20,430 nt of DNA from a virus (taxonomy: Duplodnaviria > Heunggongvirae > Uroviricota > Caudoviricetes), in the IMG/VR virus record IMGVR_UViG_2541047888_000001. One strand, 5' to 3'. The translations under genes and the position numbers were made by a program. This document shows, piece by piece, positions 3,166 to 20,430 of the stretch. Position 1 is the first letter of the stretch; the number at the start of each line of letters is the position of its first letter. The notes under the pieces are model-generated. The model had not been told where the DNA came from and made no database searches. It saw nothing but the letters and a program-made list of their open reading frames with translations.

Positions 3166-3251
3166 GGCGTATTCGACATTTGACGCAAATAAAACTCTCG
3201 CCATTCGTTGCAGGAGGGGGTTATTGCGTCATTAGTACAGGATATTAATAA

Positions 3252-3455: not shown

Positions 3456-3886
3456 TGGAAAAGAAAAACCGCCCATTACAGGCGGCTAATTCAGATATTC
3501 GCGTATCTGATGTTACGCCCCTGACAAAATCCCTTCAAGCACCAAAGCGCACGCCGAAAAAGCATCGTGCCCGAGTCTATATGCTGCGTACTGGTATAGA
3601 GGGATGGACAGAAAATGACATTCTTCGCTACTGCCGTCTGTCTTCTGGTCGTAACTATGCAACAGAGTTAGAACGCCAGCTCGGAATCACTCTGGAGCGT
3701 ATCGACGAAAAGAATCCTGATGGTATCGGAACACACCTTCGCTACCGTTTCTCCTGCCGTGGTGATGTTCTGAAAGTGATCACTCATATTAACCATCTTG
3801 CGAACATAAATGATCACAACGGACTTTCTCAGCAGGAAATTGCCGACATTCTGAAACTCTACCCGGACGCGTTTAACGCCGCCTAA
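3455..3886 (+). CDS. hypothetical protein (143 aa)
   Basis: ORF translationally coupled to alpA; GAGGTGG RBS; no family recognised by eye. Confidence 0.6.
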   Translation: MEKKNRPLQAANSDIRVSDVTPLTKSLQAPKRTPKKHRARVYMLRTGIEGWTENDILRYCRLSSGRNYATELERQLGITLERIDEKNPDGIGTHLRYRFSCRGDVLKVITHINHLANINDHNGLSQQEIADILKLYPDAFNAA

Positions 3887-3898
3887 CGGAGACTGAAA

Positions 3899-4732: not shown

Positions 4733-4907
4733 GCCGACAGGAACACCACAACCTCAAAAACGCTACAAAGATGCCCACGGAGCACTCGTTACTGTCGAAA
4801 GCGTGTCTCACAACCGAGTGACGTTTTATCGCGACGGGTATCAATCGCCATGCGTACAACCGCTGGCACGTTTCATGAAGGAGTTCGCGGAGGTTAACAA
4901 ATGCTAA
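4725..4907 (+). CDS. small hypothetical protein (60 aa)
   Basis: ATG preceded by GGAGG; start overlaps the stop of the upstream gene and its stop overlaps the next start (ATGCTAA). Confidence 0.5.
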   Translation: MFKPTGTPQPQKRYKDAHGALVTVESVSHNRVTFYRDGYQSPCVQPLARFMKEFAEVNKC

Positions 4908-5968: not shown

Positions 5969-6155
5969 CTCAATTAATACCCCTCGCCTTACGTCCGCAC
6001 TTCAATTAATCGAGCAAGCAGCGGCTGTCCTGGTTGCTGTCAGTCTTTCGGCTGAAGAAATGGACGCTACTGATGTCGTGGATGCGATTAAAGCGTGCTC
6101 ATCTTTGGTTAACGATGCCCGTGCAGAGCTGGTAATTCTTGGGGGTGAAAAATGA
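5961..6155 (+). CDS. small hypothetical protein (64 aa)
   Basis: Overlapping start/stop with neighbours; GGGGGAA RBS. Confidence 0.5.
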   Translation: MNNSINTPRLTSALQLIEQAAAVLVAVSLSAEEMDATDVVDAIKACSSLVNDARAELVILGGEK

Positions 6156-6415
6156 ATATCAACTTAATTTATCGTCATCCGTGTGAGCTGGAAATTGAAT
6201 CATTGCTGAGCCGTGAAGAGCCATATCCAGACACATTCACTCTTGCAGATCGCACGACTGAACGGCTTACCAGAGCGCGCACAGGTCTGGTTCATGTGAT
6301 GAATGAGATTCTTCCATCGGTGGGAGGGGAACAGGCGACAGTAATCACTAGCTGGCTACAAAAAGTTACCTCTCTGATAGATATCAGTTTAATCGATGCG
6401 GAGAGTGCGAAATGA
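6152..6415 (+). CDS. small hypothetical protein (87 aa)
   Basis: ATGA overlap with the previous stop; GGGGGTG RBS. Confidence 0.5.
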   Translation: MNINLIYRHPCELEIESLLSREEPYPDTFTLADRTTERLTRARTGLVHVMNEILPSVGGEQATVITSWLQKVTSLIDISLIDAESAK

Positions 6416-6633
6416 CCAACATCCAGCTCATTGAAGCGCAATGTCGCATCGAACAGGTTCAGACTGTTTTAGGGTTCTGGCTTGAAGGGGCCAGCCCCAG
6501 CAACAGAGACAAGTTAATGATTGGCGCGGTTATGTCACTGCTCAATGGCGTACCAGAAGCTATTCAGGAAGCAGACGAATTGTTGGGCAAATATGAGTTA
6601 CAGAATCATTCAGGCGAGGCGAAACATGAATAA
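6412..6633 (+). CDS. small hypothetical protein (73 aa)
   Basis: ATGA overlap with the previous ORF; same-strand operon. Confidence 0.5.
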   Translation: MTNIQLIEAQCRIEQVQTVLGFWLEGASPSNRDKLMIGAVMSLLNGVPEAIQEADELLGKYELQNHSGEAKHE

Positions 6634-7228
6634 TTTCTTAACTTTCCATGCAGAAGCAACGCCTGACGGCGTAAACATCATGCACCGCAGCAACGATGGC
6701 ATGACAGAACGCGTTGAGACCGTCTCATATATTGATGCCGTAAATCGTCTGGATGCCGGGGATTATGACGATAAACCAGATGAAGGCATGTCAATACATC
6801 TCGCTATAGCCGATGGCGGCAACCAGGGATATTTCGATTACACATCACAGCATAACGTCATTATGTGGAGATGGCTGATCGCAACAGTATTCATGCTGGA
6901 AATGAGAGAGGAAAACGGCACTGTCAGCATCATTGATGATACTGGCAATCCTTCCGAAGTGGCTGTTTATTCCAACGGCATCGTCGCCATGCCGCTGTAT
7001 CCAGTAGCAGAGCGCCTCGCTATGGCAAACAACATTGAGGGCGCGATGATAGAACGTTTTGGCATCGAGTCTGGCACAGAACGCGCCATCATTTTCTACA
7101 GAGCCATGATGGATGTGGAACAAGGAGCACTGACTCCATTTGGTCGTGAAACGCTTGCTGAACTTCACAACAGCTTTATAGCTGAACTGAATGAAAACGG
7201 CATGCCAGCGGAACCAGTGACGCACTGA
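6626..7228 (+). CDS. hypothetical protein (~200 aa from ATG 6626; the ORF track extends to 6521)
   Basis: ATG 6626 overlaps the upstream stop and has GAGG upstream; the N-terminal extension from 6521 looks non-protein-like. Confidence 0.55.
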   Translation: MNNFLTFHAEATPDGVNIMHRSNDGMTERVETVSYIDAVNRLDAGDYDDKPDEGMSIHLAIADGGNQGYFDYTSQHNVIMWRWLIATVFMLEMREENGTVSIIDDTGNPSEVAVYSNGIVAMPLYPVAERLAMANNIEGAMIERFGIESGTERAIIFYRAMMDVEQGALTPFGRETLAELHNSFIAELNENGMPAEPVTH

Positions 7229-7238
7229 GGATGGAGCC

Positions 7239-7580
7239 ATGATTACTAAAAATTTCCGACTGAATGCGCTGGCAAATAAGTATGCGTCGGCACTGTATAA
7301 CCACATTACCTCCACCAGCGGCGGGGACTATTTCATGGTTGATGCGGACGGCGAGGCCGTACGTGTGGAAATCGTCAATGGAGTAAAAGGCGTTCGCAGC
7401 CTGATCGATAGCTACACACTGGCAGCCATGAAAGTGTTCTACCCGCAGTGGGAAACCGTGGGGATCGAGCTTCTTGAGCGTTGCGTCACTAAGGACGGAT
7501 TGACTGACGTCGGGCGTGAGATATGGCAAAGCATGGTTAATGACATGGGCGCAACTGTAGCGGGAGGTTCTCATGCGTGA
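7239..7580 (+). CDS. hypothetical protein (113 aa)
   Basis: GAGGATGGAG RBS; coupled to the next gene. Confidence 0.55.
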   Translation: MITKNFRLNALANKYASALYNHITSTSGGDYFMVDADGEAVRVEIVNGVKGVRSLIDSYTLAAMKVFYPQWETVGIELLERCVTKDGLTDVGREIWQSMVNDMGATVAGGSHA

Positions 7581-7944
7581 AAATGCAGAAATGGCGCTTA
7601 GCTCCGCAATCGGAGAGCAGGTGGCAAAGATTGCTGGTGCTGTGTGGATTCATAACCTTCATTCTACTGGTGAAGAGAAAATGGCAATTCAGACGCCAGA
7701 GGGACGCACCATTACTACATCTCTGAAGCCGTCAGATGTTTGTGATCTGATTTGCGCATTCATGTACCCAGCAATGAGGACTGTCCACGGCGATAAGTGG
7801 AAACTTGCGACAACCGCTGAATTTGATATGTGGCTAAACAATGATGGCATGCTGACTGATTACGGAATAACCAAGTGGCAGATGCTGGTTAGCCATATCG
7901 CAAACGCTATAGACCACGTGGGGTACGGTGATGCGAAACATTGA
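7573..7944 (+). CDS. hypothetical protein (123 aa)
   Basis: GGGAGG RBS; stop overlaps the primase start. Confidence 0.55.
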   Translation: MRENAEMALSSAIGEQVAKIAGAVWIHNLHSTGEEKMAIQTPEGRTITTSLKPSDVCDLICAFMYPAMRTVHGDKWKLATTAEFDMWLNNDGMLTDYGITKWQMLVSHIANAIDHVGYGDAKH

Positions 7945-10687
7945 TCTTATCCGTCAGGTTATCAGTGCGTCTGAAAACAACTGGCCTCATGTGCTGGGCT
8001 GCCTGAACATAAATGTCCCTGACTCTCCGCGCCGTCATGCTCCCTGCCCTGCATGTGGGGGCAAAGATCGATTCCGGTTCGATGACAACGGGCGCGGTAG
8101 CTTCATCTGTAATCAGTGCGGCGCTGGTGATGGGCTGGATTTAATTAAACGCGTAAATAACTGCGACACAACAGAGGCGGCGCTTCTTGCCGCTGATGTT
8201 CTGGGTATTGATTACCGGACAACGGAAACACCAGAAGCCACCAGCCAGAAACGGGAACAACTGGAAACCGAGCGCCAGCGACGCGAACAGGAGCGCCTGA
8301 AAAGGGCAGAGAAGGACGAACAACAAAGACGGGATACGTTTTCCCGTCAGTTTGATGACATGCGCAGAAAGGCTGTAAACGGCAAATCTGATTATCTGGT
8401 TGCGAAAGGGGTAGGTGATTTTACATTCCCCGTGTTGCCCGATGGATCTCTGTTGCTGGCGCTGGTGGATAAATCCGGCGCAGTCACAGCAGCACAGACT
8501 ATTACCTCACATGGTGAAAAAAGACTCCTGAGAGGTTCAGCAAAGCGGGGGGCATATCACGCCATAAACGCGCCAGAAACAACACAGAGCATCTTAATTA
8601 CAGAAGGGCTGGCAACGGCATTATCTGCCCATTTAATTCGTCCAGAGGCGCTGACAGTGGCGGCGATTGATGCCGGGAACCTGTTATATGTCGCCCAGGT
8701 ACTGCGGGATAAATTTCCTTCAGCACAAATCATCATTGCTGCGGATAACGACCACAGCGAAGGAAGACAAAACACGGGGAGAATAGCAGCAGAAAAAGCA
8801 GCTTTATCTGTTTCTGGATGGGTGGCATTACCCCAGACAGATCACAAAGCAGACTGGAATGATTACCACCAAAAACACGGCATTAAATGCGCCACAGAAG
8901 CGTTCAATAAGTCAATGTACCAACCACAGGGTAATGGCGTGAAACAGGAGCCACAGACCATTGAGGGAAGCGATTTTAAGGTTATGGATACCGACCCACT
9001 GAAACCAAGAATAGAAAGCCGCGAGGATGGTATTTATTGGGTATCTCCGAGAGCTGACAGCCAGAGTGGAGAAATCATCAATAACGAAAGCTGGTTATGT
9101 TCTCCGTTAAGCGTTATCGGTACTGGCAGAGACGATAAAGACCAGTATCTCATTCTTCGCTGGCTGTCGTTTGGTTCTGAAACGCCGACAACCGCTGCCA
9201 TTCCACTGGCTGATATTGGTGAACGTGAAGGATGGCGCACACTTAAAGCTGGTGGGGTAAATGTCACGACCAAAAGCAGCCTCAGAGCAATACTGGCAGA
9301 CTGGCTACAACGCAGTGGCTCTCGTGAATTGTGGCGTGTTGCTCATGCCACTGGCTGGCAATGCGGAGCGTACATCATGCCTGATGGGGAAATCATCGGA
9401 ACACCTGAAAATCCTGTGCTGTTCAGCGGGAGAAGCTCAGCCGCAGCCGGATATACCGTCTCAGGGAGCGCGAAAAGCTGGCGTGATAACGTGGCGCGTC
9501 TGGCCTTTGGTAACTATTCAATGATGACCGGGATCGGCGCAGCACTGGCAGCGCCATTGATTGGGCTGGTGGGCGCTGACGGGTTCGGCATTCATTTCTA
9601 TGAGCAGTCGAGCGCAGGTAAGACCACCACGGCAAACGTGGCGAGCAGCTTATACGGCAACCCTGATTTACTGCGGCTGACGTGGTACGGAACCGCGCTG
9701 GGGCTGGCAAATGAGGCCGCCGCCCACAATGACGGACTAATGCCGCTTGATGAAGTTGGTCAGGGCGCTGATCCTGTCAGCGTTTCACAGTCTGCCTATG
9801 CGTTATTTAACGGTGTAGGGAAACTGCAAGGCGCTAAAGATGGTGGAAACCGGGATCTAAAACGCTGGCGTACAGTGGCAATCAGCACCGGAGAAATGGA
9901 TTTAGAAACATTTATCGCTACTTCCGGGCGAAAAACCAAAGCCGGGCAACTGGTGCGACTGCTGAATATTCCGTTGAGTAAAGCAGTACGCTTTCACGAT
10001 TACCAGAACGGAAAACAGCACGCAGACGCACTGAAAGACGCTTACCAGCATCACCACGGCGCGTCCGGGCGTGAGTGGATTAAATGGCTGGCAGACCACC
10101 AGCAACAGGCTATTAAAACCGTTCGTGACTGCGAAAGCAGATGGAGAAGCCTGATCCCATCCGATTATGGTGAGCAGGTTCACCGTGTAGCCGCGCGATT
10201 TGCCATTCTGGAGGCCGCATTGTTGTTAGGCGAGGTTGTAACAGGCTGGGATGCTCAGACATGCCGTGATGCGATACAGCACAGCTATAACGCATGGTTG
10301 CGCGAGTTCGGCACAGGTAACAAAGAGCATCAGCAGATTATTGAACAAACGGAGGCATTTCTTAATGCCTATGGGCTTAGCCGTTTTGCACCATTTCCAT
10401 ACAGCCCGGCAGATTTGCCCATCAAAGATTTAGCCGGATACCGTCAGCGTGGAGAACATGACGAAAGCCCAATGATTTTCTACACATTCCCGGCCACATT
10501 TGAAAAGGAGATCGCATGTGGTTTCAACGCAAAACAGTTTGCTGAAGTGTTGAAAAAAGCCGGGATGCTAACCCCACCAAACAGCGGTCGTGGATACCAA
10601 AGAAAATCACCACGTATTCAGGGACGACAAATAAACGTTTATGTACTCAATTACCAGCCAGGAGATTATAACTCATCTGAAGAATGA
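7931..10687 (+). CDS. P4 alpha-like DNA primase/helicase (N-terminal Cys4 zinc ribbon, Toprim domain, C-terminal P-loop NTPase)
   Basis: ~918 aa; CPACGG...CNQCG zinc ribbon (about nt 8045-8120); Toprim signatures ILITEGLATA and AADNDHSEG; P-loop-like YEQSSAGKTT; start could be GTG 7928 or ATG 7931. Confidence 0.85.
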   Translation: MRNIDLIRQVISASENNWPHVLGCLNINVPDSPRRHAPCPACGGKDRFRFDDNGRGSFICNQCGAGDGLDLIKRVNNCDTTEAALLAADVLGIDYRTTETPEATSQKREQLETERQRREQERLKRAEKDEQQRRDTFSRQFDDMRRKAVNGKSDYLVAKGVGDFTFPVLPDGSLLLALVDKSGAVTAAQTITSHGEKRLLRGSAKRGAYHAINAPETTQSILITEGLATALSAHLIRPEALTVAAIDAGNLLYVAQVLRDKFPSAQIIIAADNDHSEGRQNTGRIAAEKAALSVSGWVALPQTDHKADWNDYHQKHGIKCATEAFNKSMYQPQGNGVKQEPQTIEGSDFKVMDTDPLKPRIESREDGIYWVSPRADSQSGEIINNESWLCSPLSVIGTGRDDKDQYLILRWLSFGSETPTTAAIPLADIGEREGWRTLKAGGVNVTTKSSLRAILADWLQRSGSRELWRVAHATGWQCGAYIMPDGEIIGTPENPVLFSGRSSAAAGYTVSGSAKSWRDNVARLAFGNYSMMTGIGAALAAPLIGLVGADGFGIHFYEQSSAGKTTTANVASSLYGNPDLLRLTWYGTALGLANEAAAHNDGLMPLDEVGQGADPVSVSQSAYALFNGVGKLQGAKDGGNRDLKRWRTVAISTGEMDLETFIATSGRKTKAGQLVRLLNIPLSKAVRFHDYQNGKQHADALKDAYQHHHGASGREWIKWLADHQQQAIKTVRDCESRWRSLIPSDYGEQVHRVAARFAILEAALLLGEVVTGWDAQTCRDAIQHSYNAWLREFGTGNKEHQQIIEQTEAFLNAYGLSRFAPFPYSPADLPIKDLAGYRQRGEHDESPMIFYTFPATFEKEIACGFNAKQFAEVLKKAGMLTPPNSGRGYQRKSPRIQGRQINVYVLNYQPGDYNSSEE

Positions 10688-10712
10688 GCTTCTTCATGTG
10701 CGTAGAAAAGGT

Positions 10713-10823
10713 GTTGGTTCAGTTGGTTCAGTTGGTTCAATTTGTAAAGAGTATTGTTTTATAAGGATTTTATTCTTTTTATTGAACCAACACTGAACCA
10801 ACAACACGGTATTTTGAACCAAC
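10713..10823. repeat. Iteron-like array A: 3 tandem GTTGGTTCA, AT-rich spacer, 3 inverted TGAACCAAC
   Basis: Perfect 9-mers at 10713-10721, 10722-10730, 10731-10739 and inverted copies at 10783-10791, 10794-10802, 10815-10823, separated by ~43 bp of AT-rich DNA; directly downstream of the primase gene. Confidence 0.7.
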
Positions 10824-10875
10824 ACAATGTGACTGAATTGATGCGCACAACACCTGGCTGGCATCAGAGAGTGTT

Positions 10876-10949
10876 TTACGAGACTTTCGTAAAATCCTGT
10901 GTACAAGGGCGTGACGTTTTTGAAAGTGAGCACTACGAAATTTTCGTAG
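10876..10949. promoter_or_regulatory. Two palindromic operator-like sites TACGA-N5-TCGTA
   Basis: TTACGAGACTTTCGTAA (10876-10892) and CTACGAAATTTTCGTAG (10933-10949); identical half-sites and spacing, ~57 bp apart. Confidence 0.4.
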
Positions 10950-11143
10950 TTCAGAAAACAGCCTCTGAGAAGTTGTTATGCCTGTTCAGCAAACCATCCG
11001 CATAGCTGATCGCGAATCAAATTACCAATGGAGCCAGAAGCAAGGGCAGAACTGAAAAGCGCCTGCCGTGAAGAGTAATGCGACACCATAAATATAGTTT
11101 TTAGAGTCCATAAAAAACCTGTCAAAACCTGACACACAGAACG

Positions 11144-11177
11144 ATGCCACCAGCTACTGAGCGGTGGCATTTTTTTG
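11144..11177 (+). terminator. Rho-independent terminator-like hairpin
   Basis: ATGCCACC-(11 nt loop)-GGTGGCAT followed by a T run (TTTTTT at 11171-11176). Confidence 0.6.
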
Positions 11178-11271
11178 TGCTATTTGTTTCATATTTTGCA
11201 ATTACGATGATGAATATTGCGATTTGTGAAACTATAATAACTGTTGTTTTATACAGTTCTAAGGGGGCGTT

Positions 11272-11433
11272 ATGGCTATTTCAGTAAAGCCGGTATTGAT
11301 AAGTGAGAAGCAAATGGAAGCGATAAAGAAAATTCAGGAAGAGCAGCGTAAAAAATCAGGAATTGGAGTAGCGCCAACTCTGCATGAAATTGCACGAGGG
11401 TTAATAGATAAGGCGCTGGCAGGCTGTATGTGA
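11272..11433 (+). CDS. small protein (53 aa), possible ribbon-helix-helix DNA-binding protein; not in the supplied ORF track (<60 aa)
   Basis: ATG 11272 preceded by AAGGGGG; TATAAT at 11233-11238 upstream; sequence MAISVKPVLISEKQMEAIKKIQEEQRKKSGIGVAPTLHEIARGLIDKALAGCM has a beta-strand plus two helices pattern; first gene of the downstream operon. Confidence 0.45.
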   Translation: MAISVKPVLISEKQMEAIKKIQEEQRKKSGIGVAPTLHEIARGLIDKALAGCM

Positions 11434-11449
11434 AAATGGATGGCATCGC

Positions 11450-11911
11450 ATGGAACTAAAATTTATTGATAACCCTGTGCGATTACAGGCCTTTCTTAAC
11501 GAGCCAGGCAATACCGAAAATATTGTTGAGCCGGGGCACACGTACTACATCAAGCCTGATGCGGTATATCTCGGCATCTACGAAGGATTAGTGCTGGCTG
11601 GCGTTCATGAAGTGCGTAACTTCTGGCATAGCGTTGTTGAATGCCATGCGGTGTACGACCCCGGATTCCGTGGTGAATATGCACTGCAAGGACATCGATT
11701 ATTCTGCAAATGGCTTCTCGAAAACTCACCATTCCTTAACAGCATCACTATGGTTCCTGACACCACGAAATACGGACGGGCAATTATCCGTTTGCTTGGC
11801 GCTACCCGTGTTGGTCACCTTGATGATGCTTATATCAGATGTGGTAAACCCGTCGGCGTAACGCTTTATCAGTTAACTCGGCAACAATATAAGGAATTCA
11901 GCGAATGTTAA
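11450..11911 (+). CDS. hypothetical protein (153 aa)
   Basis: ORF with GGATGG upstream; stop overlaps the start of the next gene (ATGTTAA); no family recognised. Confidence 0.65.
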   Translation: MELKFIDNPVRLQAFLNEPGNTENIVEPGHTYYIKPDAVYLGIYEGLVLAGVHEVRNFWHSVVECHAVYDPGFRGEYALQGHRLFCKWLLENSPFLNSITMVPDTTKYGRAIIRLLGATRVGHLDDAYIRCGKPVGVTLYQLTRQQYKEFSEC

Positions 11912-12582
11912 TTACCCATATAGCTCATAAACATCTCAATCGTGCCGTATACGAAAAAGGCGGTGATGGTGGTGCCTCTAAAGCTCAGGCGAAGGCCCAG
12001 CAGCAGGCAATTGATTTGCAGCGCGAGCAGTGGAATACGGTGATGAATAATCTCAAGCCGTATGCAGAAGTCGGATTGCCTGCTTTACAACAACTACAAG
12101 GACTGATGACTCTGGAAGGGCAGAATAAAGCCGCGAATGATTTCTTTGGTTCTGGTTTATATAAAACACAGGCAGATCAGGCCCGTTATCAGAACCTTGT
12201 CTCAGCAGAAGCTACCGGGGGGCTTGGCTCAACAGCTACCAGTAACCAGTTATCTTCCATTGCGCCCATGCTTTATAACAATTGGCTTAGTGGGCAAATG
12301 CAAAATTATGGAAACCTGCTAAATGTCGGGATGAATGCGGCATCAGGGCAGGCAACGGCAGGGCAAAACTACGCCAATAATACCGGACAACTCTTGCAGG
12401 GGCTTGGCGCTATTCGTGCAGGTCAGGCGCAGCAGCCATCCAGTCTTGCGCGTGGTATTGGTGGGGCAGCATCAGGCGCTTTAGCGGGTGCGCAACTTGG
12501 TTCCGTTGTTCCTGGAATAGGAACTGCGGCCGGCGCTATTGGTGGTGGGCTTATTGGTCTTGTTGGGGGGCTTGGATTCTAA
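11905..12582 (+). CDS. low-complexity Gln/Ala/Gly-rich protein (225 aa) with C-terminal glycine-zipper hydrophobic segment; possible phage ejection-protein-like (size comparable to P22 gp7)
   Basis: Translationally coupled at both ends; C-terminus GAASGALAGAQLGSVVPGIGTAAGAIGGGLIGLVGGLGF; the ejection-protein link is an inference from size, order and composition only. Confidence 0.7.
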   Translation: MLITHIAHKHLNRAVYEKGGDGGASKAQAKAQQQAIDLQREQWNTVMNNLKPYAEVGLPALQQLQGLMTLEGQNKAANDFFGSGLYKTQADQARYQNLVSAEATGGLGSTATSNQLSSIAPMLYNNWLSGQMQNYGNLLNVGMNAASGQATAGQNYANNTGQLLQGLGAIRAGQAQQPSSLARGIGGAASGALAGAQLGSVVPGIGTAAGAIGGGLIGLVGGLGF

Positions 12583-14003
12583 TGGCGACATGGCAACTTG
12601 GCGGGCTGCCTAGCATGGCACCGCAAAATGATAATGCTCCTCGTTCTTCCGTTCCTCAGCCTGTGCAGTATCAGCAGCAGCCAAACGTAGGTTTAATGGC
12701 GCTACAGGGGCTAAGAGGCGTTGCTGAGATTAATCAGCAGGCACGTCAACAACAGCGTAAAGCAGAGTTTCAGAAAGCATATGCCGGGGCTTTTGAGTCT
12801 GGAGACAGAAACAAAATGCGCAGTCTTATTTCTGAGTATCCAGAAGAATTTGAAAGCGTTCAGAAAGGGATGGGCTTTATTGATGACGACCAGAGAAATT
12901 CTATTGGTCATCTTGCGACTAGTGCTCAAATCGCATCTTCGCTCGGAACTGGGGCATTTGGAAAATTCATAGCAGATAACGAAGATGAAATGCGTCGCTT
13001 GGGAATTTCTCCTGAGTCTGTTGCCGAAATGCATGTTAATGATCCACAGGGGTTCCAGCGGCTTGCTGGTAGTATGGCACTGTTTTCTCTCGGTCATGAG
13101 AAGTATTTCGATATCAAAGATCAAATGGAAGGTCGGGATATTGAGCGTGGCAAGTTGGCAGAAACAATCCGCAGCAATCAGGCTGGCGAAGCACTTCAGG
13201 CGAGAGGGCAGGATATTAGCCGAGCAAATGCGTTAACGTCAGCATATGCACCAACAGCAGCAATGCAGAATTACAATCAGTACGCTCAAATGTTAAAGGC
13301 GGATCCAGAGGGGGCGGCGGCATTTGCGGCAGCGGCTGGAATTAATACAAACGCCAAAAAATTAATGAGTGTTAGAGAAAACGATGATGGCACTGTCACA
13401 AAATACTACACAGACGGAAGTGAAGAGCAGGGAAAACTAAACCAGCCAATATCTGGAGATGGGTTTCGTCCAATAGCTTTGCCAACAGCCCAAAAGATCA
13501 TGGAAAAGTCGCCAGAAGGGGCTAAAAAAGCTGCTGGATTTGCATACAGGGTTAGGGATGCTCTTGATTCAATAGATACACTGAAAGACCAGCTTAGCCC
13601 ACAGCGAGTGGCGATCATTAATAATGCTTTGGGTAATGGGACGCTGGCTAACTTAACGCTCAGCCCAACAGAACAGCAATACGTTGTTAATGCTAATGAC
13701 GCAATAATGGCAATACTCCGTCAGGAAACAGGGGCAGCCATCGTACCTGCTGAAATGTCAAAATATTATCAAATGTATTTCCCTCAGCCTGGCGACTCCA
13801 CAAAAACCATTGATACCAAGCGCCGGAAGATGGAAAACCAGTTCAATTCGCTGAAAGCTGCTTCTGGTCGAGCTTATGATGCTTTGCGGGTTATTTCAGC
13901 AGTTGACAGAGGAACTTCTTCTTCGTCGCAGACATTGCCGCAATCTGAGCAGGTATCACAGCCAGCAGCCAGCAGTAACTTTTCTTCACTATGGGGTGAT
14001 TAA
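12582..14003 (+). CDS. hydrophilic Gln/Ala-rich protein (473 aa); possible ejection-protein-like (size comparable to P22 gp20)
   Basis: TAATG coupling at both ends; long ORF with protein-like composition; no catalytic motif recognised. Confidence 0.75.
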   Translation: MATWQLGGLPSMAPQNDNAPRSSVPQPVQYQQQPNVGLMALQGLRGVAEINQQARQQQRKAEFQKAYAGAFESGDRNKMRSLISEYPEEFESVQKGMGFIDDDQRNSIGHLATSAQIASSLGTGAFGKFIADNEDEMRRLGISPESVAEMHVNDPQGFQRLAGSMALFSLGHEKYFDIKDQMEGRDIERGKLAETIRSNQAGEALQARGQDISRANALTSAYAPTAAMQNYNQYAQMLKADPEGAAAFAAAAGINTNAKKLMSVRENDDGTVTKYYTDGSEEQGKLNQPISGDGFRPIALPTAQKIMEKSPEGAKKAAGFAYRVRDALDSIDTLKDQLSPQRVAIINNALGNGTLANLTLSPTEQQYVVNANDAIMAILRQETGAAIVPAEMSKYYQMYFPQPGDSTKTIDTKRRKMENQFNSLKAASGRAYDALRVISAVDRGTSSSSQTLPQSEQVSQPAASSNFSSLWGD

Positions 14004-16108
14004 TGGCTAAAGCATGGAAAGATGTTATCGCCTCTCCACAGTATCAGGCGTTAGCACCAGAACAAAAAGCGCAGGCTCAGGAGCAATACTTCAATGAAGT
14101 CGTGGCCTCGCAAGCCGGAGAAAGTGTAGAGCAGGCTAAGCAGGCTTTTTATGCTGCCTATCCACTACCATCAACGAATGAAATAGACCGATCCCAATCA
14201 GCAACTCAAAATATTCAACATACATCATCTGATAATTCTCTTGCGTCAGGGTATGCAAAGTTAGCTACTCAGCAAAGAGAGGGGCTTGAGCGTTCAGCAG
14301 AACAGGGAGCCAGTCTTGGGGCTGCGATGCGCGATGCTATAACAGGCGAAAGCCGAATGACTCCAGAGATGGAGAGACTGCAAAATGTCGACCTTGCCCC
14401 AGAGTTAACCTCACTCAGCATGGATGCTCTAAAAGCTCGATGGTCTCAACTTTTCGGCTCTGACGCATCTCAGGAAAAGATTCTTCAGAGCATGGGAGCG
14501 AAATTAAGGCAGGATGAGAAGGGTAACACTATCGTTTCCCTGCCATCCGGTGATTATGCTCTGAACAAGCCGGGTTTATCGCCGCAAGACGTGGCATCGT
14601 TTCTGGCTAATGCGCTGGCGTTTACACCAGCGGGCAGGGCTGGAACGGTGCTTGGTGCCATAGGAAAATCAGCAGCTACAGATTTAGCACTACAGGGAGC
14701 CACTAGCCTTGCTGGTGGAGAAGATATTGATCCGTTACAAACGGTAATTTCTGCTGGCATTGGTGGTATTGGTAAGGGGCTGGAAAATACAGCGAGTGCG
14801 GTTTCGAGGGCTGTTCGTGGTGATATGTCGCCTGAAGCAAAGGCTGCTGTCGACTTTGCATCGGAAAGAAATCTGCCGTTAATGACCAGTGACATGCTAA
14901 AAGATAAAACCTTTATGCAGAGTCAGGCTCAGACATTAGGCGAAAGAGTTCCTTTTTTTGGAACCGGTAAGAATCGGCTGAATCAACAACAAGCACGAGA
15001 AAATTTAGTCAGAACATTTAGCGATGGTCTGGGTGGCATTTCTGATAAACAGCTTTATGAATCTGCGACTAAAGGGCAACAAAAATTCATTGAGGCAGCA
15101 GGAAAGCGATATAACCGCATAATTGACGCTATGGGGGATACCCCTGTCGATCTCTCAAACACGGTAAAAGCTATCGACAATCAGATTGCCGTGTTAAGCC
15201 GCCCGGGCAAATCTCAGGATAGAGCCGCGGTAAAAGTCTTGCAGCAATTTAAAGACGATATCACCAGCGGACCAAATGACCTGCGTCTGGCGAGGGAAAA
15301 CAGAACCGATCTTCGAAAGCGATTTATGGCGTCATCTGACACTGTTGATAAAGATACGCTCCAGAAAGCCAGCGATATTATCTACAAGGCATATACGGCG
15401 GATATGAAAAAAGCCGTAGCCAAAAATCTTGGAGCAGACGAAGCCATTAATATGGCAAGGGTTGATCGCTCATGGTCTAAATTTAATGACATGATGGGAA
15501 GAACGCGCGTTCAAAAGGCAATAGCCAGCGGCAAGGCCACGCCTGAGGATGTAACAAAACTCGTTTTTAGCCAAAACCCATCAGAACGTTCTCAGCTTTA
15601 CAGGCTTCTGGATGACAATGGTAGGCAAAACGCACGAGCAGCCATAGTTCAGAATGCTGTAGATAAGGCGACTGATCCGTCTGGAAATATCAGTGTTGAG
15701 AAGTTTATTAATGCGTTACACCGGAACAGGAAGCAATCAGCAACTTTCTTTAAAGGCGTACATGGAAAGGAACTGGACGGCGTTATTAAATACCTCAACG
15801 ATACAAGACACGCGGCAAAAGCGAACGTTCAAAACTTAAATGGTCAGCAGCTTTATGGTTTGTTAGTTGGTGGTGGCATCATAAACGCAGCAGTATTAGC
15901 GGGGATGCTAAAAACGGCTGCGTTTGTTGTTCCTGCTGCTGGTGCCGTAGGCGGAGCAGCGAAGGCATACGAAAGCCCTGTTATACGAAATGCCTTGTTA
16001 CGTCTGGCAAATACGCCAAAAGGTAGCACAGCATATGACAGAGCGATCAGTACGGTCACACAATCGCTCACCAGAGTCGCACAGGCATCACAAAAAGAAG
16101 CTCAATAA
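14003..16108 (+). CDS. large Gln/Ala-rich protein (701 aa) with C-terminal hydrophobic Gly/Ala segment; possible ejection-protein-like (comparable to P22 gp16)
   Basis: TAATG-coupled to the upstream gene; C-terminal LYGLLVGGGIINAAVLAGMLKTAAFVVPAAGAVGGAAKAY putative membrane-interacting segment. Confidence 0.75.
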   Translation: MAKAWKDVIASPQYQALAPEQKAQAQEQYFNEVVASQAGESVEQAKQAFYAAYPLPSTNEIDRSQSATQNIQHTSSDNSLASGYAKLATQQREGLERSAEQGASLGAAMRDAITGESRMTPEMERLQNVDLAPELTSLSMDALKARWSQLFGSDASQEKILQSMGAKLRQDEKGNTIVSLPSGDYALNKPGLSPQDVASFLANALAFTPAGRAGTVLGAIGKSAATDLALQGATSLAGGEDIDPLQTVISAGIGGIGKGLENTASAVSRAVRGDMSPEAKAAVDFASERNLPLMTSDMLKDKTFMQSQAQTLGERVPFFGTGKNRLNQQQARENLVRTFSDGLGGISDKQLYESATKGQQKFIEAAGKRYNRIIDAMGDTPVDLSNTVKAIDNQIAVLSRPGKSQDRAAVKVLQQFKDDITSGPNDLRLARENRTDLRKRFMASSDTVDKDTLQKASDIIYKAYTADMKKAVAKNLGADEAINMARVDRSWSKFNDMMGRTRVQKAIASGKATPEDVTKLVFSQNPSERSQLYRLLDDNGRQNARAAIVQNAVDKATDPSGNISVEKFINALHRNRKQSATFFKGVHGKELDGVIKYLNDTRHAAKANVQNLNGQQLYGLLVGGGIINAAVLAGMLKTAAFVVPAAGAVGGAAKAYESPVIRNALLRLANTPKGSTAYDRAISTVTQSLTRVAQASQKEAQ

Positions 16109-16127
16109 CTGGTTAGCCATGGATGGC

Positions 16128-16742
16128 TTAGATATCTCTGCTGTCTCCATTAGGAAATAAAAGATAATATGGATTTGCCTTTCTTGCTCTCCTTGCTTCA
16201 CCTGGATACCTGTTAGTCAGTAGCTTGCATAATGAGCAGAGAACAACACTCAAGAAAATTCCGAATGAGAAGATCAATATCTCACCAAAAATCAATGGCG
16301 ATATTAAATTTTCAGGATTTAATGATAAGTCAATGTTAAAAACATATTGAGCAATACCAGTAAGTATCAATAATATAATCCCTATGGAATACATTGCTGT
16401 TTCCCAAACATCAGACAGTCTATTTTTGAATTGTTCGCTGGAGTAGTAGTTTGTTATAAAGTCAGAAAAATCACTCTCATATGCATCATCTTTAGGTGAT
16501 GTTAGAAATCCTCTGTCTCTCCATACCTTCTCCCAATTAGTCGATTCTTTTTTTAAGGAAAAATAAATATGTATTGCCAAAAGGATAGCCAAAATTGGTG
16601 TTAGCTCTAAAAAATAGAATGTTATGGAATAAATAATACTGCCATGTTCAAACTCATCTGGGACTATCATGTATGCACAAAAATAAATTGAAAAGTACAC
16701 CATGCAGATAGTTAGCAATTCTTTAGTATCTTTTCTGCTCAC
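16128..16742 (-). CDS. AT-rich integral membrane protein (204 aa, ~4 predicted TM helices), unknown function
   Basis: GTG start preceded by AAGGGGG on the minus strand; four hydrophobic stretches (e.g. LLTICMVYFSIYFCAYMIV, IIYSITFYFLELTPILAILLAIHIYF); markedly lower GC than flanking genes; convergent with the 701 aa gene. Confidence 0.7.
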   Translation of the reverse strand: MSRKDTKELLTICMVYFSIYFCAYMIVPDEFEHGSIIYSITFYFLELTPILAILLAIHIYFSLKKESTNWEKVWRDRGFLTSPKDDAYESDFSDFITNYYSSEQFKNRLSDVWETAMYSIGIILLILTGIAQYVFNIDLSLNPENLISPLIFGEILIFSFGIFLSVVLCSLCKLLTNRYPGEARRARKANPYYLLFPNGDSRDI

Positions 16743-16932
16743 ACCAACCCCCTTTAGCGTTGTTTAGAATGGCAATCATCATATATCCAAGACATGGCAT
16801 TTGGTACATAGCTTGGGTCGGGATTTCAAATCCGCCCCCGTTGATGGGGTCGTTACAGTACGCGCATATCCGCTTTATGTGAAACAGGAAGATTTTTCTG
16901 ATATCACTGCCACAGCAAAACACCAATTTCGA

Positions 16933-17232
16933 GACAAGTACGCGCGCGAGGGGTATCAGTTGCAAAATTTTTTGCAGCTGCGTCCGACCAGTACGCACAC
17001 GATGGCGGGGAGCAGCATAAAACTGTTCTCTACATAGACAGAGTGGTGGTGATGTGTTGATTATCGGCGTATATGCGCACAGGACGCGCTATGACGATGT
17101 TTTATGCGGGTACACCAATCACATGTATCTGATGTGATAAATCGTGTTACATGACATCTCATGTTGTGCTGGTGGTTATCACGACGTTCTGAATCTGGCC
17201 TTTGCCTGATATTTTGCGACAAGTACGCGCGC
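16933..17232. repeat. 16 bp direct repeat GACAAGTACGCGCGCG (two copies) within the long non-coding region
   Basis: Copies at 16933-16948 and 17217-17232; palindrome TGCAAAATTTTTTGCA at 16962-16977 lies between them. Confidence 0.4.
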
Positions 17233-17383
17233 GTAGCATCGAAATTATCGGATGGCGTATGCTGCTGGCAATATGAAGACCGATAGTATTAACCGAAAAG
17301 CGATTAAGGAGTGCCAACTTTTCAGTAGAGAAACTAGCCAGCACAGGGAAATGTAGAAATTACCCAATTAATAGGTAAAAGTT

Positions 17384-17500
17384 ATTGACACACCCTGTAG
17401 TGGATAACGATATGAATAAAAACCACATATAGTGGTTTTTCGTTAGTGATGATAGTATCTATGTTAGTTTCCTAAGTAACTGTGCATTGACATGTGGATA
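17384..17500. promoter_or_regulatory. Duplicated TTGACA + DnaA-box-like (TGTGGATAA / AGTGGATAA) elements flanking a hairpin, upstream of the Abi gene
   Basis: TTGACA 17384-17389 with AGTGGATAA 17398-17406; TTGACA 17486-17491 with TGTGGATAA 17492-17500 (reverse complement of the DnaA box TTATCCACA); hairpin AAAAACCAC-ATATA-GTGGTTTTT at 17417-17439. Confidence 0.35.
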
Positions 17501-17612
17501 ACTTCGGATAGAGTTACAATCAACTGAGCCCGGCCCCCTGGCTTTATCTTGTCTTAGATGAGAAATTGTTATGGCCGGGCCTTCTTGTATCTGGAGGTAG
17601 GAAACCTTTTGT

Positions 17613-18575
17613 ATGGCTGTTCCGGTTAAGGTTCATAAAGAATATGATGAACTTGTCGATTTATTGCTGTCTCGGGGTATGGATGTGCCAGATCGCGAAC
17701 ATGCTATCAAGAAAATCTCACAAGTAGGCTACTACCGATTATCAGGCTTTTGGTACCCCTGCCGAATCCCCCATATAACAACAGACAATATTAGAACCAG
17801 ACTCGATCAGGTTCGTCCAGGTACTAATTTTCGCGCAGTATATGACCTCTATTTATTCGATAAAAATCTGCGTTTGCAGATGATGAATGCGTTAGAACGC
17901 ATTGAGGTTTATGTTCGGTCAGTTATTGCTCATGAGCTTGGTAAGATATCTCCTTTAGCATATCTTGATGACTCGCTAATAAATCCAAAACACTTTAGAC
18001 CACGTTCCCATGGTCGCCCAAGCGCCAGAGAAGAATGGATAAATAAACATAATGCCGAGATTGCTAAAAGTCGCGAAGACTTTATCAAATGGCATGAAAA
18101 CAAGTACGAAGGTCTTCCTTTCTGGGTGGTTATTGAAGTGTGGGACTTCGGCTTAATGTCAAAGTATTATGCGATGCTAAAAGACAGCTATCGCAACAGG
18201 ATACTATCTAGGCTAGGGATAGCGGCAGGCAATGGAGCTATCTTCCAAAACTGGCTTAGCGCAATGAATGTGCTAAGGAATCGGTGCGCTCACCATTCAC
18301 GCATCTGGAACAAGGTCAACGAACCAAGATTAATGCCTTTGCCAAATGAGCCGTACTTTGAACAATTAAATATGAATGATGATGCGTACGAAAGAATGTA
18401 CGGAATGATCGCTGTGTTATGGTTTTTAGTGAAAAAAATTGGACCGGGATCTGACTGGATAAAAAAAGTTGCCAACCTTGTAGATAACAAGCCTAACTTA
18501 CCAGGATGTAACCTGACAGCCATGGGATTACCTGATAATAACGGTTTCCCAAGGCATTTATTTGATATTGAATAA
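17613..18575 (+). CDS. Abi_2 family (AbiD/AbiF-like) abortive-infection protein, predicted HEPN domain
   Basis: 320 aa; GGAGG RBS; family-typical motifs ISQVGYYRLSGFWYP, FDKNLR, PFWVVIEVWDFG and the HEPN Rx4H motif RNRCAHH (about nt 18276-18296). Confidence 0.8.
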   Translation: MAVPVKVHKEYDELVDLLLSRGMDVPDREHAIKKISQVGYYRLSGFWYPCRIPHITTDNIRTRLDQVRPGTNFRAVYDLYLFDKNLRLQMMNALERIEVYVRSVIAHELGKISPLAYLDDSLINPKHFRPRSHGRPSAREEWINKHNAEIAKSREDFIKWHENKYEGLPFWVVIEVWDFGLMSKYYAMLKDSYRNRILSRLGIAAGNGAIFQNWLSAMNVLRNRCAHHSRIWNKVNEPRLMPLPNEPYFEQLNMNDDAYERMYGMIAVLWFLVKKIGPGSDWIKKVANLVDNKPNLPGCNLTAMGLPDNNGFPRHLFDIE

Positions 18576-18576
18576 A

Positions 18577-19032
18577 TTATAGCGATGGCGCTGAATGTAG
18601 CGCCACTGATAACTTTTCAGCATTGCTTCCCTGACGCTTCCACGCGCTATAAATATCTTTATCCCATGCCTTACCAGCTTTTGTTTGATAGCCTGCTTCA
18701 TTGATCCGTTCAGCTATCACGCGCCCATTATCAAATCCCTGTCGGATGGTATCGGCAATGATCTTTATAACTGCCGTTTCGTTATATGGCTTTGGTGGGA
18801 TGTTCGGCTTTCCGGCAATAAGCGACGCAGCGGCTTTTTCCATGCGCTCCACCAGCCCAAGCATTCGTGAATCAATAGACTTTTCCGGCTGTCCCAGCTT
18901 CATGCGAATCGCATCAACAAGCCAGGAGGTTTTATCCCCTCCAGAAGCGAGAACAGACCGATTAAACTCATCCTGCAATTCAGATGGGATGCGGAACGCG
19001 ACCAGATTAGATTTGCTCATTGCAAAGACCAT
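18577..19032 (-). CDS. ribbon-helix-helix domain protein (151 aa), putative transcriptional regulator
   Basis: N-terminus SNLVAFRIPSELQDEFNRSVLASGGDKTSWLVDAIRMKL fits the RHH (CopG/Arc/MetJ) pattern; weak RBS; convergent with and abutting the Abi gene. Confidence 0.6.
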   Translation of the reverse strand: MVFAMSKSNLVAFRIPSELQDEFNRSVLASGGDKTSWLVDAIRMKLGQPEKSIDSRMLGLVERMEKAAASLIAGKPNIPPKPYNETAVIKIIADTIRQGFDNGRVIAERINEAGYQTKAGKAWDKDIYSAWKRQGSNAEKLSVALHSAPSL

Positions 19033-19050
19033 ATCAGTGAGTAATATCCA

Positions 19051-19067
19051 TACAGTATACCACTGTA
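19051..19067. promoter_or_regulatory. Palindromic operator-like site TACAGT-N5-ACTGTA upstream of the minus-strand RHH gene
   Basis: Read directly from the sequence; lies ~20-35 bp upstream of the RHH gene start; followed by a CACTGT(T)ATA direct repeat. Confidence 0.35.
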
Positions 19068-19134
19068 TAACACTGTTATACGCTCAAATATTAGCCAGAA
19101 AATAACGGACCAATCACAAAGCTATCGCTGTGTT

Positions 19135-19255
19135 GTTGGTTCAGAGCTGGGCTGTGTTGGTTCAAAATGAGTTGATGTTGGTTCAATATTTCAGAAAAAA
19201 CACAATAAAAACAACGATCTTTACAAATTGAACCAACTGAACCAACTGAACAAAC
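19135..19255. repeat. Iteron-like array B: 3 spaced GTTGGTTCA, AT-rich spacer, 3 tandem TGAACCAAC (inverted relative to array A)
   Basis: GTTGGTTCA at 19135-19143, 19156-19164, 19177-19185; TGAACCAAC at 19229-19237, 19238-19246 and degenerate TGAACAAAC at 19247-19255; the reverse complement aligns with array A including the spacer start ATTTGTAAAGA. Confidence 0.7.
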
Positions 19256-19291
19256 ACCTTTTTGCTTATCTATATAATCTGAGAGGCAGAA

Positions 19292-19579
19292 ATGATAAGG
19301 GACAGGAAAGCTGAAGAACTGGAGTCAAAAGGGCTATACCGGAGAGCTGCCGCACGATGGGCAGAAGTCATGATGCTGGCAGATGGCGATAAAGAACGTG
19401 AACATGCAGCAAACAGACGCTCTGAATGTATCCGTAAGGCGGCACGCCCACCAGCAACTACAGACAGATTCGGAGATTTAAGACAGGCAGTTAAGCGGAC
19501 TCATTCGGCTCTTGGTATGGATGAGGAAGCGAGAGGGTACTTCAGGCGTTATCGCGATAAAGATTGCCAGAGACAGTAA
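19292..19579 (+). CDS. PerC-family transcriptional regulator-like protein (95 aa)
   Basis: N-terminus MIRDRKAEELESKGLYRRAAARWAEVMM resembles the PerC/Pch family pattern (AE.LE.KGL.RRAA.RW.EVM); GAGAGG RBS. Confidence 0.6.
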   Translation: MIRDRKAEELESKGLYRRAAARWAEVMMLADGDKEREHAANRRSECIRKAARPPATTDRFGDLRQAVKRTHSALGMDEEARGYFRRYRDKDCQRQ

Positions 19580-19920
19580 TGCTCTCTCTGTTTTGGCAAA
19601 TTACCCCTCACTTTGAAGGGATCGGAGCTATAAAAATGGTGTTATCCGGCTTCCTGCATTGCAGGTTTTCGAAAGAATCAATGGGTTAGGTCATCGTGCA
19701 AATTTGCACTCTGCCAGCCAACGCAATTTCTCGTTGGCGGAAATATCAGGTATTTACTGAACGAACGGTCTACCCGCCTGTTCAACTACCAGTTGTACAT
19801 GGCTGCTTTATGTGCAAATGGTGGTGAGAGAAAATTGTTTGGGGGTACTTTTGGGGGTGTCTCCAAAGATGTAACGTGAAAATATCTTTATATATCAATG
19901 TATTTTTATTGTTTGTTTTG

Positions 19921-19939
19921 TTCCTATTATCGCACCATT
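19921..19939. other. attR of island 1 / attL of the tandem second island (partial tRNA-Thr 3' end copy)
   Basis: TCCTATTATCGCACCATTC matches tRNA 3' end 1428-1447 with a single G deletion; followed by a sequence homologous to the island-1 int-proximal region. Confidence 0.6.
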
Positions 19940-20091
19940 CTAACGTCTCCCCAAGTCTACTCAAGTATTTAAAAACCTCTTATAATCAGTATATTAATGC
20001 CCCTTTTAGTCTTTTGACGTCTATTTAAGTACCCCAAACTCTACAAGCAATTGAGGGGATTTGCTGTTCAGTTTAGTGGAGATACCCCCAA

Positions 20092-20430
20092 GTGAAACTC
20101 AATGCCCGTCAAATAGACACTGCCAAGCCAAAAGAGAAGGCTTACAAGTTGGCTGATGGTGGTGGTCTGTACCTCCTGGTAAAACCTGGTGGAGGAGAAT
20201 ATTGGCGTCTCAAGTATCGTGTAGCTGGTAAAGAGAAGCTGTTAGCACTAGGTGTGTATCCTGAGGTCACCTTAGCTGATGCTCCTGCAAAACTTGAAGA
20301 AGCTAAAAGAGGTATCTCTGGGGGAATCGATCTGATGGAAGTGAAGCGAGAGGAAAAGATTGCCCGGGAAACGCAGTTAAACAACACCTTCAAAGATATT
20401 GCCCTTGAGTGGCACAGTAACAAATTATAA
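20092..20430 (+). CDS. int: second P4-type integrase, N-terminal portion (GTG start); in-frame TAA at codon 113 at the window edge, possibly disrupted
   Basis: 112 aa, ~92% identical by eye to the island-1 integrase N-terminus; island 1 reads AGC AAA TTA AAA AAA TGG here, island 2 reads AAC AAA TTA TAA. Confidence 0.6.
   Translation: MKLNARQIDTAKPKEKAYKLADGGGLYLLVKPGGGEYWRLKYRVAGKEKLLALGVYPEVTLADAPAKLEEAKRGISGGIDLMEVKREEKIARETQLNNTFKDIALEWHSNKL

Follow-up and report, generated by a model that had tools for sequence, protein, structure and literature searches.

The window analysed here is a 20,430-nt stretch of viral DNA (IMG/VR virus record IMGVR_UViG_2541047888_000001; Caudoviricetes), and its subject is abi, a gene for a 320-residue abortive-infection protein, together with the leader that precedes it. 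In the direction of transcription, the locus comprises a sigma70-like promoter, a structured RNA element with a U-rich tail, a purine-rich run, abi itself, and a convergent gene for a 151-residue protein. All of these lie within an 18.5-kb phage-inducible chromosomal island (PICI) of E. coli that occupies a threonine tRNA gene (Table 1).

The Abi protein and its leader

The assignment of the protein to the Abi_2 / AbiD-F HEPN family is secure. A preliminary description of this DNA, made from the sequence alone, had named an Abi_2 (AbiD/AbiF-type) HEPN gene, and profile searches bear this out: Pfam Abi_2 (PF07751) matches at 177.8 bits (E = 3.6e-52), above its curated cut-off of 25.6, over positions 3-184 of the 184 in the profile, and the AbiD model of PADLOC matches at 2.7e-57. 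The Rx4H motif RNRCAHH, also named in that description, is present at residues 222-228 (nt 18276-18296), and R222, N223, H227, and H228 are invariant across 33 aligned Abi homologues, PbAbiF included. A search against all sequences of the PDB returned a sole match, 8VZ6_A, deposited as an "Abi family protein" (E = 7.5e-34; residues 10-307). The AlphaFold2 model of Abi (predicted local distance difference test, pLDDT, 93.4; predicted template-modelling score, pTM, 0.89) led Foldseek to the same chain, the "PbAbiF dimer bound to ncRNA" (non-coding RNA), at E = 4e-16 and TM 0.76/0.82. This was the only significant PDB match, the next one having an E of 1.6. Among GenBank phages, megablast of the abi locus gave no match, and tblastn of the protein gave Firmicute-phage relatives only, at ≤32% identity.

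The leader is organized around a stem that lies immediately downstream of the promoter. Transcription is predicted to start at about 17521-17523, and because the promoter lies directly 5′ of the stem, the hairpin would be placed at the extreme 5′ end of the transcript. The RNA opens with a single strand, UCAACUGA (17520-27), followed by an 8-bp closing helix, P1, in which GCCCGGCC (17528-17535) pairs with GGCCGGGC (17573-17580). An internal loop sets CCC (17536-38) opposite U17572, and a second helix, P2, consists of outer pairs (17539-42 with 17568-71) and a variable inner hairpin (17547-53 with 17557-63). The U-rich tail CUUCUUGUAUCU (17581-92) follows, and the RNA ends about 20 nt 5′ of the abi ATG. 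The long-range stem of the preliminary description is real, conserved, and covarying, with its coordinates shifted by one base. It closes a small RNA that is itself conserved, lies next to the promoter, and has a U-rich tail. Both P1 and P2 are reproduced by the minimum free energy (MFE) fold of the window leader. The folding energy of this leader by itself is mildly unusual (z of -1.7 to -2.6), and since this single-sequence value is modest, the case for the leader RNA rests on comparison across sequences.

The purine run between the RNA and abi is a putative ribosome-binding site, judging by its sequence, and a GGAA/GGAG element stands at the Shine-Dalgarno place in many, but not all, homologous loci. 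The leader had also been called repeat-rich, which does not hold. Its only repeat is one pair of a 9-mer, GTGGATAAC, at 17400 and 17494 (1 observed versus 1.3 expected in shuffles), and Tandem Repeats Finder detected zero tandem repeats over 17000-18700. The two GTGGATAAC copies were considered as operators or tandem promoters and rejected, since their count is at chance level and they are not kept in other genera. Farther upstream, in an AT-rich region (GC 0.36) 5′ of the abi promoter, a perfect 9-bp inverted repeat (AAAAACCAC-ATATA-GTGGTTTTT, 17418-17440) is flanked by A and T runs on either side. It resembles a bidirectional terminator and is kept beside both abi alleles found in E. coli.

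Table 1. Coordinates of the locus, its cassette and island, and of orphan RNA copies; positions refer to the window unless a contig is named
Feature	Position	Strand	Basis or remark
abi gene, AbiF/AbiD-type HEPN RNase toxin, 320 aa	17613-18575	+	Pfam, PADLOC, PDB sequence and fold matches
AbiFr-like small RNA / leader element (model R1), 75 nt	17520-17594	+	Covariance model, covariation, MFE fold
Sigma70-like promoter: -35 TTGACA 17487-17492, 16-nt spacer, -10 TAGAGT 17509-17514	17487-17514	+	Consensus scan, 10/12
Shine-Dalgarno-like purine run GGAGGUAGGAA: GGAGG 17593-97, AGGAA 17599-603, 10-15 nt 5′ of ATG	17593-17603	+	Sequence reading
Allelic transcription unit, leader and abi	17518-18621	+	Alignment, protein comparison, blastn boundaries 17532 and 18622
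Convergent 151-aa gene	18577-19032	-	Ribbon-helix-helix-like N-terminus by sequence reading (LVAFRIPSELQDEFNRSV...SWLVDAIRMKLG)
Cargo cassette: AT-rich upstream, promoter, RNA, abi, convergent 151-aa gene	17299-19154		Absent from EcCIMP1
Host element, EcCIMP1-family PICI in tRNA-Thr(CGT), 18.5 kb	1428-19931		Direct repeats TCCTATTATC at 1428-1437 (inside tRNA-Thr) and 19922-19931
Orphan RNA copies, IMG/VR	L092:5800-5865; L093:4136-4201 (same in L094); L096:1454-1519	+; +; -	R1
Orphan RNA copies, IMG/VR, continued	L099:5956-6020; L104:3020-3084; L111:12707-12771; L113:1034-1098	+; -; -; -	R1

Conservation of the leader RNA and copies in phages

That a conserved structured RNA lies upstream of abi is virtually certain. 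A scan of one genome per species gave 80 loci encoding Abi relatives (40-88% protein identity) from several phyla. The leader element was present at 81 of 84 homologous loci, on the same strand and 10-68 nt (median 24) 5′ of the start codon, in Gamma- and Betaproteobacteria, Desulfobacterota, Cyanobacteria, and Nitrospirae. From its 5′ end, the shared architecture consists of a single strand (yAAyhGh), the 8-bp P1, CYC, P2 (U-A, G·U, then a length-variable hairpin), a single pyrimidine, the 3′ strand of P1, and CCUUCUUGUUU. A seed alignment of 33 short-form sequences was made without the window and without all enterobacterial copies. In this seed, 96.1% of cells fall in standard pairs, compared with 29-44% when the 3′ partner is slid by 1-3 columns, both-sided changes occur in 13 of 17 pairs, and none of 500 shuffles reaches any observed measure. 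Across the 73 distinct matched sequences, pairing stands at 94.9% and 14 of the 17 pairs covary.

The covariance model built from this seed (R1) recovers the window leader, itself not in the seed, at 49.8 bits (E = 6.6e-13), and this is its one match in the whole window. Over 588 kb searched on both strands, R1 gave 82 matches; 81 of these are on the coding strand, directly 5′ of abi. In 73 of 78 distinct loci, the first model position follows the end of a -35/-10 pair by 4-5 nt, and thus the RNA is predicted to start at +1 of its own promoter. In addition, each of the 71 distinct loci counted has 5-8 U residues among the 10 nt that follow P1. The modest z of the single sequence would fit an inverted repeat that arose by chance, or a generic terminator that serves upstream genes and has nothing to do with abi, but no + strand gene lies immediately 5′ and the promoter abuts the stem. 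This explanation, to which we give next to no probability, is already contradicted by an element that travels with abi across phyla and carries compensatory changes.

The same alignment bears on whether the leader is a translational switch, as the preliminary description implied when it noted a short upstream open reading frame (ORF) starting at 17557. On such a reading, an upstream ORF over the abi start, or a fold that masks the ribosome-binding site, would hold the gene silent until infection, much as in lactococcal AbiD1. The frame does exist, with an ATG at 17558 and 23 codons up to the TAA at 17629; in MFE folds, the GGAGG run can be paired with CCUUC or ACCUUU; and translation of AbiD1 is activated by a phage protein (PMC13064643). 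However, the start of the frame lies within the variable inner hairpin, where AUG alternates with ACG, and no peptide is conserved. An ATG-initiated ORF of at least 10 codons spans the abi start in just 39 of 73 loci, at differing positions and in differing frames, and leader ORFs mostly translate the conserved 3′ arm of the RNA (MFGPS...). Many loci have no Shine-Dalgarno sequence to mask, and in some the start codon is 10 nt from P1. Sequestration of the ribosome-binding site by CCUUC/GGAGG pairing was also rejected in its own right, as it appears in one MFE fold and the sequence downstream is unconserved. A translational switch is accordingly very improbable. What survives of the earlier proposal is the idea that the leader restrains a toxic HEPN RNase, while a switch based on the upstream ORF, on repeats, or on a free-standing hairpin finds no support.

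The RNA is also found apart from abi. An unconditioned search of IMG/VR with the leader pattern returned 23 loci, of which R1 confirms 19. In 11 of the 23, abi lies 20-32 nt 3′ of the RNA, and eight phage contigs (seven distinct) carry the RNA at 50-74 bits without an abi gene (Table 1). The Abi_2 profile found nothing at E ≤ 0.01 in six-frame translations of the eight fetched phage loci, each with a few kb of flank. These orphan copies are flanked by terminase and portal/adaptor genes, directly follow the gene for the major head protein, or lie 5′ of an anti-repressor or tail-fibre-like gene. Pattern matches in L097, L100, L106, and L110 were discarded as chance occurrences in GC-rich coding sequence that R1 misses. 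A T4-like cyanophage with a lone copy of the Rfam abiF motif (RF03085) is on record (PMC9964418).

Because intact copies occur in phages without abi, they argue that the leader RNA has a function of its own in trans. The RNA could thus be a stand-alone, trans-acting AbiF antidote that phages have captured as a decoy antitoxin to disarm AbiF abortive infection, a tentative proposal that we consider possible rather than probable. An RNA encoded after the major capsid gene, or between terminase and portal, would be made in bulk late in infection. If functional, the abi-less phage RNAs would represent a new anti-defence strategy, aimed at a toxin family thought to be the source of Cas13, and the proteobacterial AbiFr class of E. 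coli would make the decoy idea, if true, directly testable. The pseudo-ToxI of phage PhiTE is a comparable natural RNA-based anti-defence (PMC3475682).

The island, the cassette and two E. coli alleles

The window runs from proA through tRNA-Thr(CGT) and the 18.5-kb island to a second integrase. Genes of the island include those for an integrase, AlpA, an AntA/B anti-repressor, the isrK and C4 RNAs, and a primase, followed by P22-like ejection proteins (gp14, gp7, gp20, and gp16), a gene with weak similarity to SieA, the abi cassette, and PerC. Its closest described counterpart is EcCIMP1, the PICI of E. coli MP1, which is mobilised by the P22-like phage Kapi1 and has the same att core and proA/tRNA-Thr site (PMC11773190). 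The two islands share the tRNA-Thr gene by proA, the att core TCCTATTATC, a backbone that is 98.3% identical across 12 kb, and the second island that adjoins them. They differ in that EcCIMP1 is without the abi cassette, and the window island has other gp20 C-terminus and gp16 alleles and the SieA-like gene.

By blastn, the window matches E. coli MP1 over 608-12742 at 98.3% and over 16815-17298 at 95%, and then not again until 19155. The interval left unmatched is the cassette, whose GC is 0.426 (0.474 elsewhere in the island). No Abi gene is annotated in MP1, and the authors of the EcCIMP1 study found no PADLOC or DefenseFinder system in the island (PMC11773190). Related islands carry the abi cassette at other chromosomal sites. 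Since EcCIMP1 is without the cassette and related islands carry it elsewhere, abi is cargo, and its slot, which separates the ejection-protein module from perC, is a variable one. The description of abi as island cargo is thus upheld, both by the TCCTATTATC repeats that bound the island and by the absence of the cassette from the otherwise 98%-identical EcCIMP1.

Several neighbours were considered as partners of abi and set aside. The convergent 151-aa gene is 93% identical beside both abi alleles, but tblastn over about 85 abi loci detects it only in E. coli, Raoultella, and (partly) Rahnella, and its protein has no match in Pfam or PADLOC. As it is confined to enterobacterial islands, it was rejected as a conserved partner. 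The SieA-like, 91-aa, and PerC neighbours gave zero PADLOC matches and were rejected as defence partners. The first of these, a 204-aa ORF (16128-16742, - strand) directly after the gp16-like gene, has a weak match to a PHROG family of SieA-like superinfection exclusion proteins (E = 4.4e-4). In P22, sieA has this position. The 91-aa ORF (16723-16998, - strand) overlaps it and has no match.

Other features of the island were recorded alongside. Genes for the ejection proteins gp14 (DUF2824), gp7, gp20, and gp16 lie within this satellite at 11450-16108. Because the gp20 C-terminus and gp16 are divergent alleles (12742-16815) in an island otherwise 98% identical to EcCIMP1, the comparison suggests that the satellite exchanges the ejection proteins in the virions of its helper. 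Near the other end, a 355-aa ORF (4901-5968) matches Pfam Phage_ASH at residues 124-232 (5270-5596), on the same DNA as the Rfam matches for isrK (5282-5359) and the C4 antisense RNA (5422-5509). Given this overlap, the annotation "ash family protein" may be the translation of an RNA-immunity locus. The MP1 counterpart of the ORF is annotated as a truncated pseudogene and adjoins an Icd-like gene. A C4 antisense RNA (60 bits) was also found in a Pseudomonas sp. metagenome-assembled genome (L058:2030-2120), about 220 nt 3′ of an abi homologue, which hints that the abi clade rides P4/P1-type immunity-bearing elements beyond Enterobacteriaceae too. Past attR, the region that follows the tRNA is repeated (19922-20430), and a second integrase with an Arm-DNA-binding domain starts at 20092. 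This sequence is a second tandem island at the same tRNA-Thr site, as described for MP1.

Within E. coli, the cassette exists in two forms. In about 75 more complete E. coli genomes, the 200 nt upstream are 95% identical to the window and then lead into a divergent Abi allele of 325 aa, which is 51% identical to that of the window although the flanks are 95-99% identical. Identity between the alleles collapses directly behind the -10 box and is regained shortly beyond the stop codon, and these sharp boundaries mean that the swapped unit is exactly the leader plus abi. In the second leader, P1 is maintained with two of its pairs altered, one from G-C to A-U and the other from C-G to U-G, and the U-tract, CUUUUAUUAUCUUUUGUUU, is clearer. 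Among 5426 complete E. coli genomes, the first allele occurs in 54-55 and the second in 73. One copy, from E. coli Z1323CEC0013 (L004:6181-6259 and 6272-7249), has a G-to-A change in P1 that creates an A·C mismatch, as well as a stop at codon 27 of abi. It is the only copy seen with a P1-breaking change, and as a single case this double lesion fits the joint decay of toxin and antitoxin.

The setting of the cassette raises the question of what it is selected for. The same module could be kept for island addiction and stabilisation, or for competition between elements, rather than for defence against unrelated phages. It is cargo in the variable slot of a mobile PICI, two divergent alleles circulate at that slot, and prophage maintenance was raised for AbiFCd by Saunier et al. 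(PMC12373285). Against this, the lactococcal AbiD, AbiD1, and AbiF were discovered through their anti-phage phenotype (PMC13064643), and the orphan RNA in phages is easier to explain if the toxin is met as a defence. Addiction and defence are compatible roles, and addiction or competition as the selected role in place of defence appears quite unlikely.

Toxin-antitoxin interpretation and comparison with known systems

A study of 2025 reportedly identified AbiF and its RNA as a toxin-antitoxin system of type III and a likely ancestor of Cas13. Published accounts describe AbiD/F proteins as two-component systems with an upstream RNA (PMC12373285; PMC12737573; PMC13064643). According to these, PbAbiF is neutralised by the non-coding RNA AbiFr, a single-stranded bulge of which blocks the HEPN site (PMC12737573 and PMC13064643, summarising Zilberzwige-Tal et al., Cell 2025). 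RCd22 of C. difficile is made up of two Rfam abiF motifs and a terminator; in cis, it acts by termination to repress abiF, and in trans, it binds and so neutralises the toxin (PMC12373285). Because the window leader has the same place and architecture as AbiFr and RCd22, which bind and neutralise AbiF toxins, an RNA antitoxin mechanism is likely at this locus. The whole is probably an AbiF-type type III toxin-antitoxin or abortive-infection module carried as cargo by a phage satellite. This interpretation builds on the family and fold of the protein, the placement, conservation, and covariation of the RNA, the geometry of the promoter, the U-tract, and the cargo status of the cassette, all of which are results of this analysis.

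The proposed mechanism follows from homology to PbAbiF-AbiFr and AbiFCd-RCd22, which would be the model for binding between RNA and protein, for neutralisation and termination, and for the trigger and the phage phenotype. The promoter would be a constitutive sigma70 promoter initiating at about 17521, and the first 60-75 nt would fold into a two-helix hairpin (P1, P2, and the conserved CYC/Y internal loop) followed by the U-rich tract. Most transcripts would probably end at this tract and yield an abundant small RNA, while those that read through would bear a poorly initiated abi ORF. Abi itself would be a HEPN RNase, probably dimeric, with RNRCAHH at its active site, and binding of the small RNA would occlude the catalytic groove and keep the enzyme inert. 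Phage infection might then cut off or destroy the labile RNA, or a phage product might displace it, and the Abi so freed would cleave cellular and phage RNA and abort the infection. Addiction of the same kind would lend stability to the island as well. An anti-phage role for abi is accordingly somewhat favoured over the absence of one.

The principal competitor of this toxin-antitoxin interpretation holds that the leader is a cis-acting attenuator or terminator only, with no antitoxin in trans, and that Abi is a single-protein system. A hairpin with a U-rich tail does lie between promoter and ORF at every locus, RCd22 does repress abiF in cis by premature termination (PMC12373285), and PADLOC, with its single AbiD model, files the AbiD-type protein as a single-gene system. 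A cis-only role does not, however, account for CAAYNG, CYCUG, UYAYG, and CCUUCUU, which are conserved far past the needs of a terminator. Homologous toxins bind their own upstream RNA, as a solved structure and biochemistry attest, RNA and protein are replaced together between the E. coli alleles, and the phage genomes with intact RNA copies have no abi to attenuate. We therefore consider a purely cis-acting leader unlikely.

Besides the PADLOC classification, several observations weigh against the toxin-antitoxin interpretation. A simple terminator scan of the leader did not call the U-tract, an interrupted one that has CC at its start (CUUCUUGUAUCU). In the seed alignment, the three pairs lowest in P2 show conservation but no covariation, and for this reason they may be an internal loop instead of a helix. 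Superinfection immunity via EcCIMP1 was reported for an island without the abi cassette (PMC11773190). The relation to known AbiF RNAs is also distant. Rfam scans of the whole window and of 16950-17750 (E ≤ 10) returned nothing in the leader, RF03085 itself having E > 10, and RF03085 gave no match at E ≤ 1 to eight other R1-type loci. As positive controls, it scored 37.6 bits on phiC2, 58.5 bits on the PbAbiF locus, and 38.1 bits on Prevotella ruminicola. The exact PbAbiF gene was recovered (L086), and in its leader the 58.5-bit motif is followed by CGUUUUAUUUUUAU and, 18 nt on, by the ATG. Conversely, the PbAbiF leader scores 12.7 bits (E = 0.086) with R1, although the match falls on precisely the equivalent position, and R1 does not match the phiC2 leader. 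Since RF03085 misses the R1 loci and R1 reaches just 12.7 bits on PbAbiF, homology of the two RNA types is plausible, not demonstrated.

By its sequence, the window leader classes as an AbiF-AbiFr-like variant RNA outside RF03085 and uncatalogued in Rfam 15; the ncRNA catalogue of Zilberzwige-Tal et al. (2025) may already contain it. The AbiF RNAs described to date correspond to the Rfam abiF motif in Bacteroidota and Firmicutes, and the present results add a large AbiF clade, in Proteobacteria, Desulfobacterota, and Cyanobacteria, whose RNA occupies a similar place, is constructed differently, and escapes detection by Rfam. Single-gene "AbiD/Abi2" calls by defence catalogues in these bacteria probably miss an RNA partner, which matters for cloning and toxicity tests. 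The two natural alleles, each with its own leader RNA, offer an E. coli-native model of RNA-protein specificity, and the work places a defence cassette in the variable slot of an experimentally tractable satellite family, that of EcCIMP1.

PbAbiF-AbiFr is among the closest known systems. The toxins are homologous over their full length (E = 7.5e-34; TM 0.76-0.82) and share the Rx4H motif. In both, a single-copy hairpin RNA lies just 5′ on the same strand, with a U-tract and the ATG within about 20-30 nt, and the one-promoter organisation is common to both. Shared signatures include a 5′ CA(A/C)UAG, a closing stem of the form CCCG...CGGG, CUCU, and a 3′ strand rich in A/U. The RF03085 motif of a Prevotella relative (L087) is interrupted directly behind CUCUC by 36 inserted nt, at the place that P2 takes in the window RNA. 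The helices themselves differ: P1 has 8 bp in the window and 6 in AbiFr, the window RNA is without the AGC/GCU mini-helix and the 6-nt CAAAUC bulge, and in it a long variable P2 stands above a small internal loop made by CYC/Y. The proteins are 28-34% identical, and the window has a proteobacterial host and a sigma70-type promoter, whereas PbAbiF is from Prevotellaceae. Because the helices differ while position and signatures are shared, the leader is filed as an AbiF-AbiFr-like variant and not as a member of RF03085.

AbiFCd-RCd22, from C. difficile prophage phi027 / phiC2, likewise has an Abi_2 toxin carried on a mobile element. Its RNA and gene are expressed from one promoter with a terminator between them, and the RNA acts both in cis (attenuation) and in trans (binding) (PMC12373285). 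RCd22 has two tandem RF03085 motifs and a separate terminator hairpin and starts 168 nt 5′ of the ATG (PMC12373285), whereas the window RNA has one motif, its own closing stem and U-tail would be the terminator, and it would start about 92 nt 5′ of the ATG. The lactococcal proteins AbiD, AbiD1, and AbiF, as well as the AbiD-like ones, belong to the same Pfam family and need a conserved upstream sequence for function or clonability; they are plasmid-borne and from Firmicutes, and AbiD1 differs in its translational activation by a phage protein (PMC13064643).

More distantly, ToxIN, AbiQ, CptIN, and TenpIN combine an RNase toxin with a cis-encoded RNA antitoxin, a terminator-set ratio of RNA to toxin, and abortive infection. 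Their toxin folds are unrelated to that of Abi, and their antitoxins are tandem-repeat arrays processed by the toxin, unlike the window leader with its lack of tandem repeats. Phages can escape ToxIN by RNA mimicry, as PhiTE does with pseudo-ToxI (PMC3475682).

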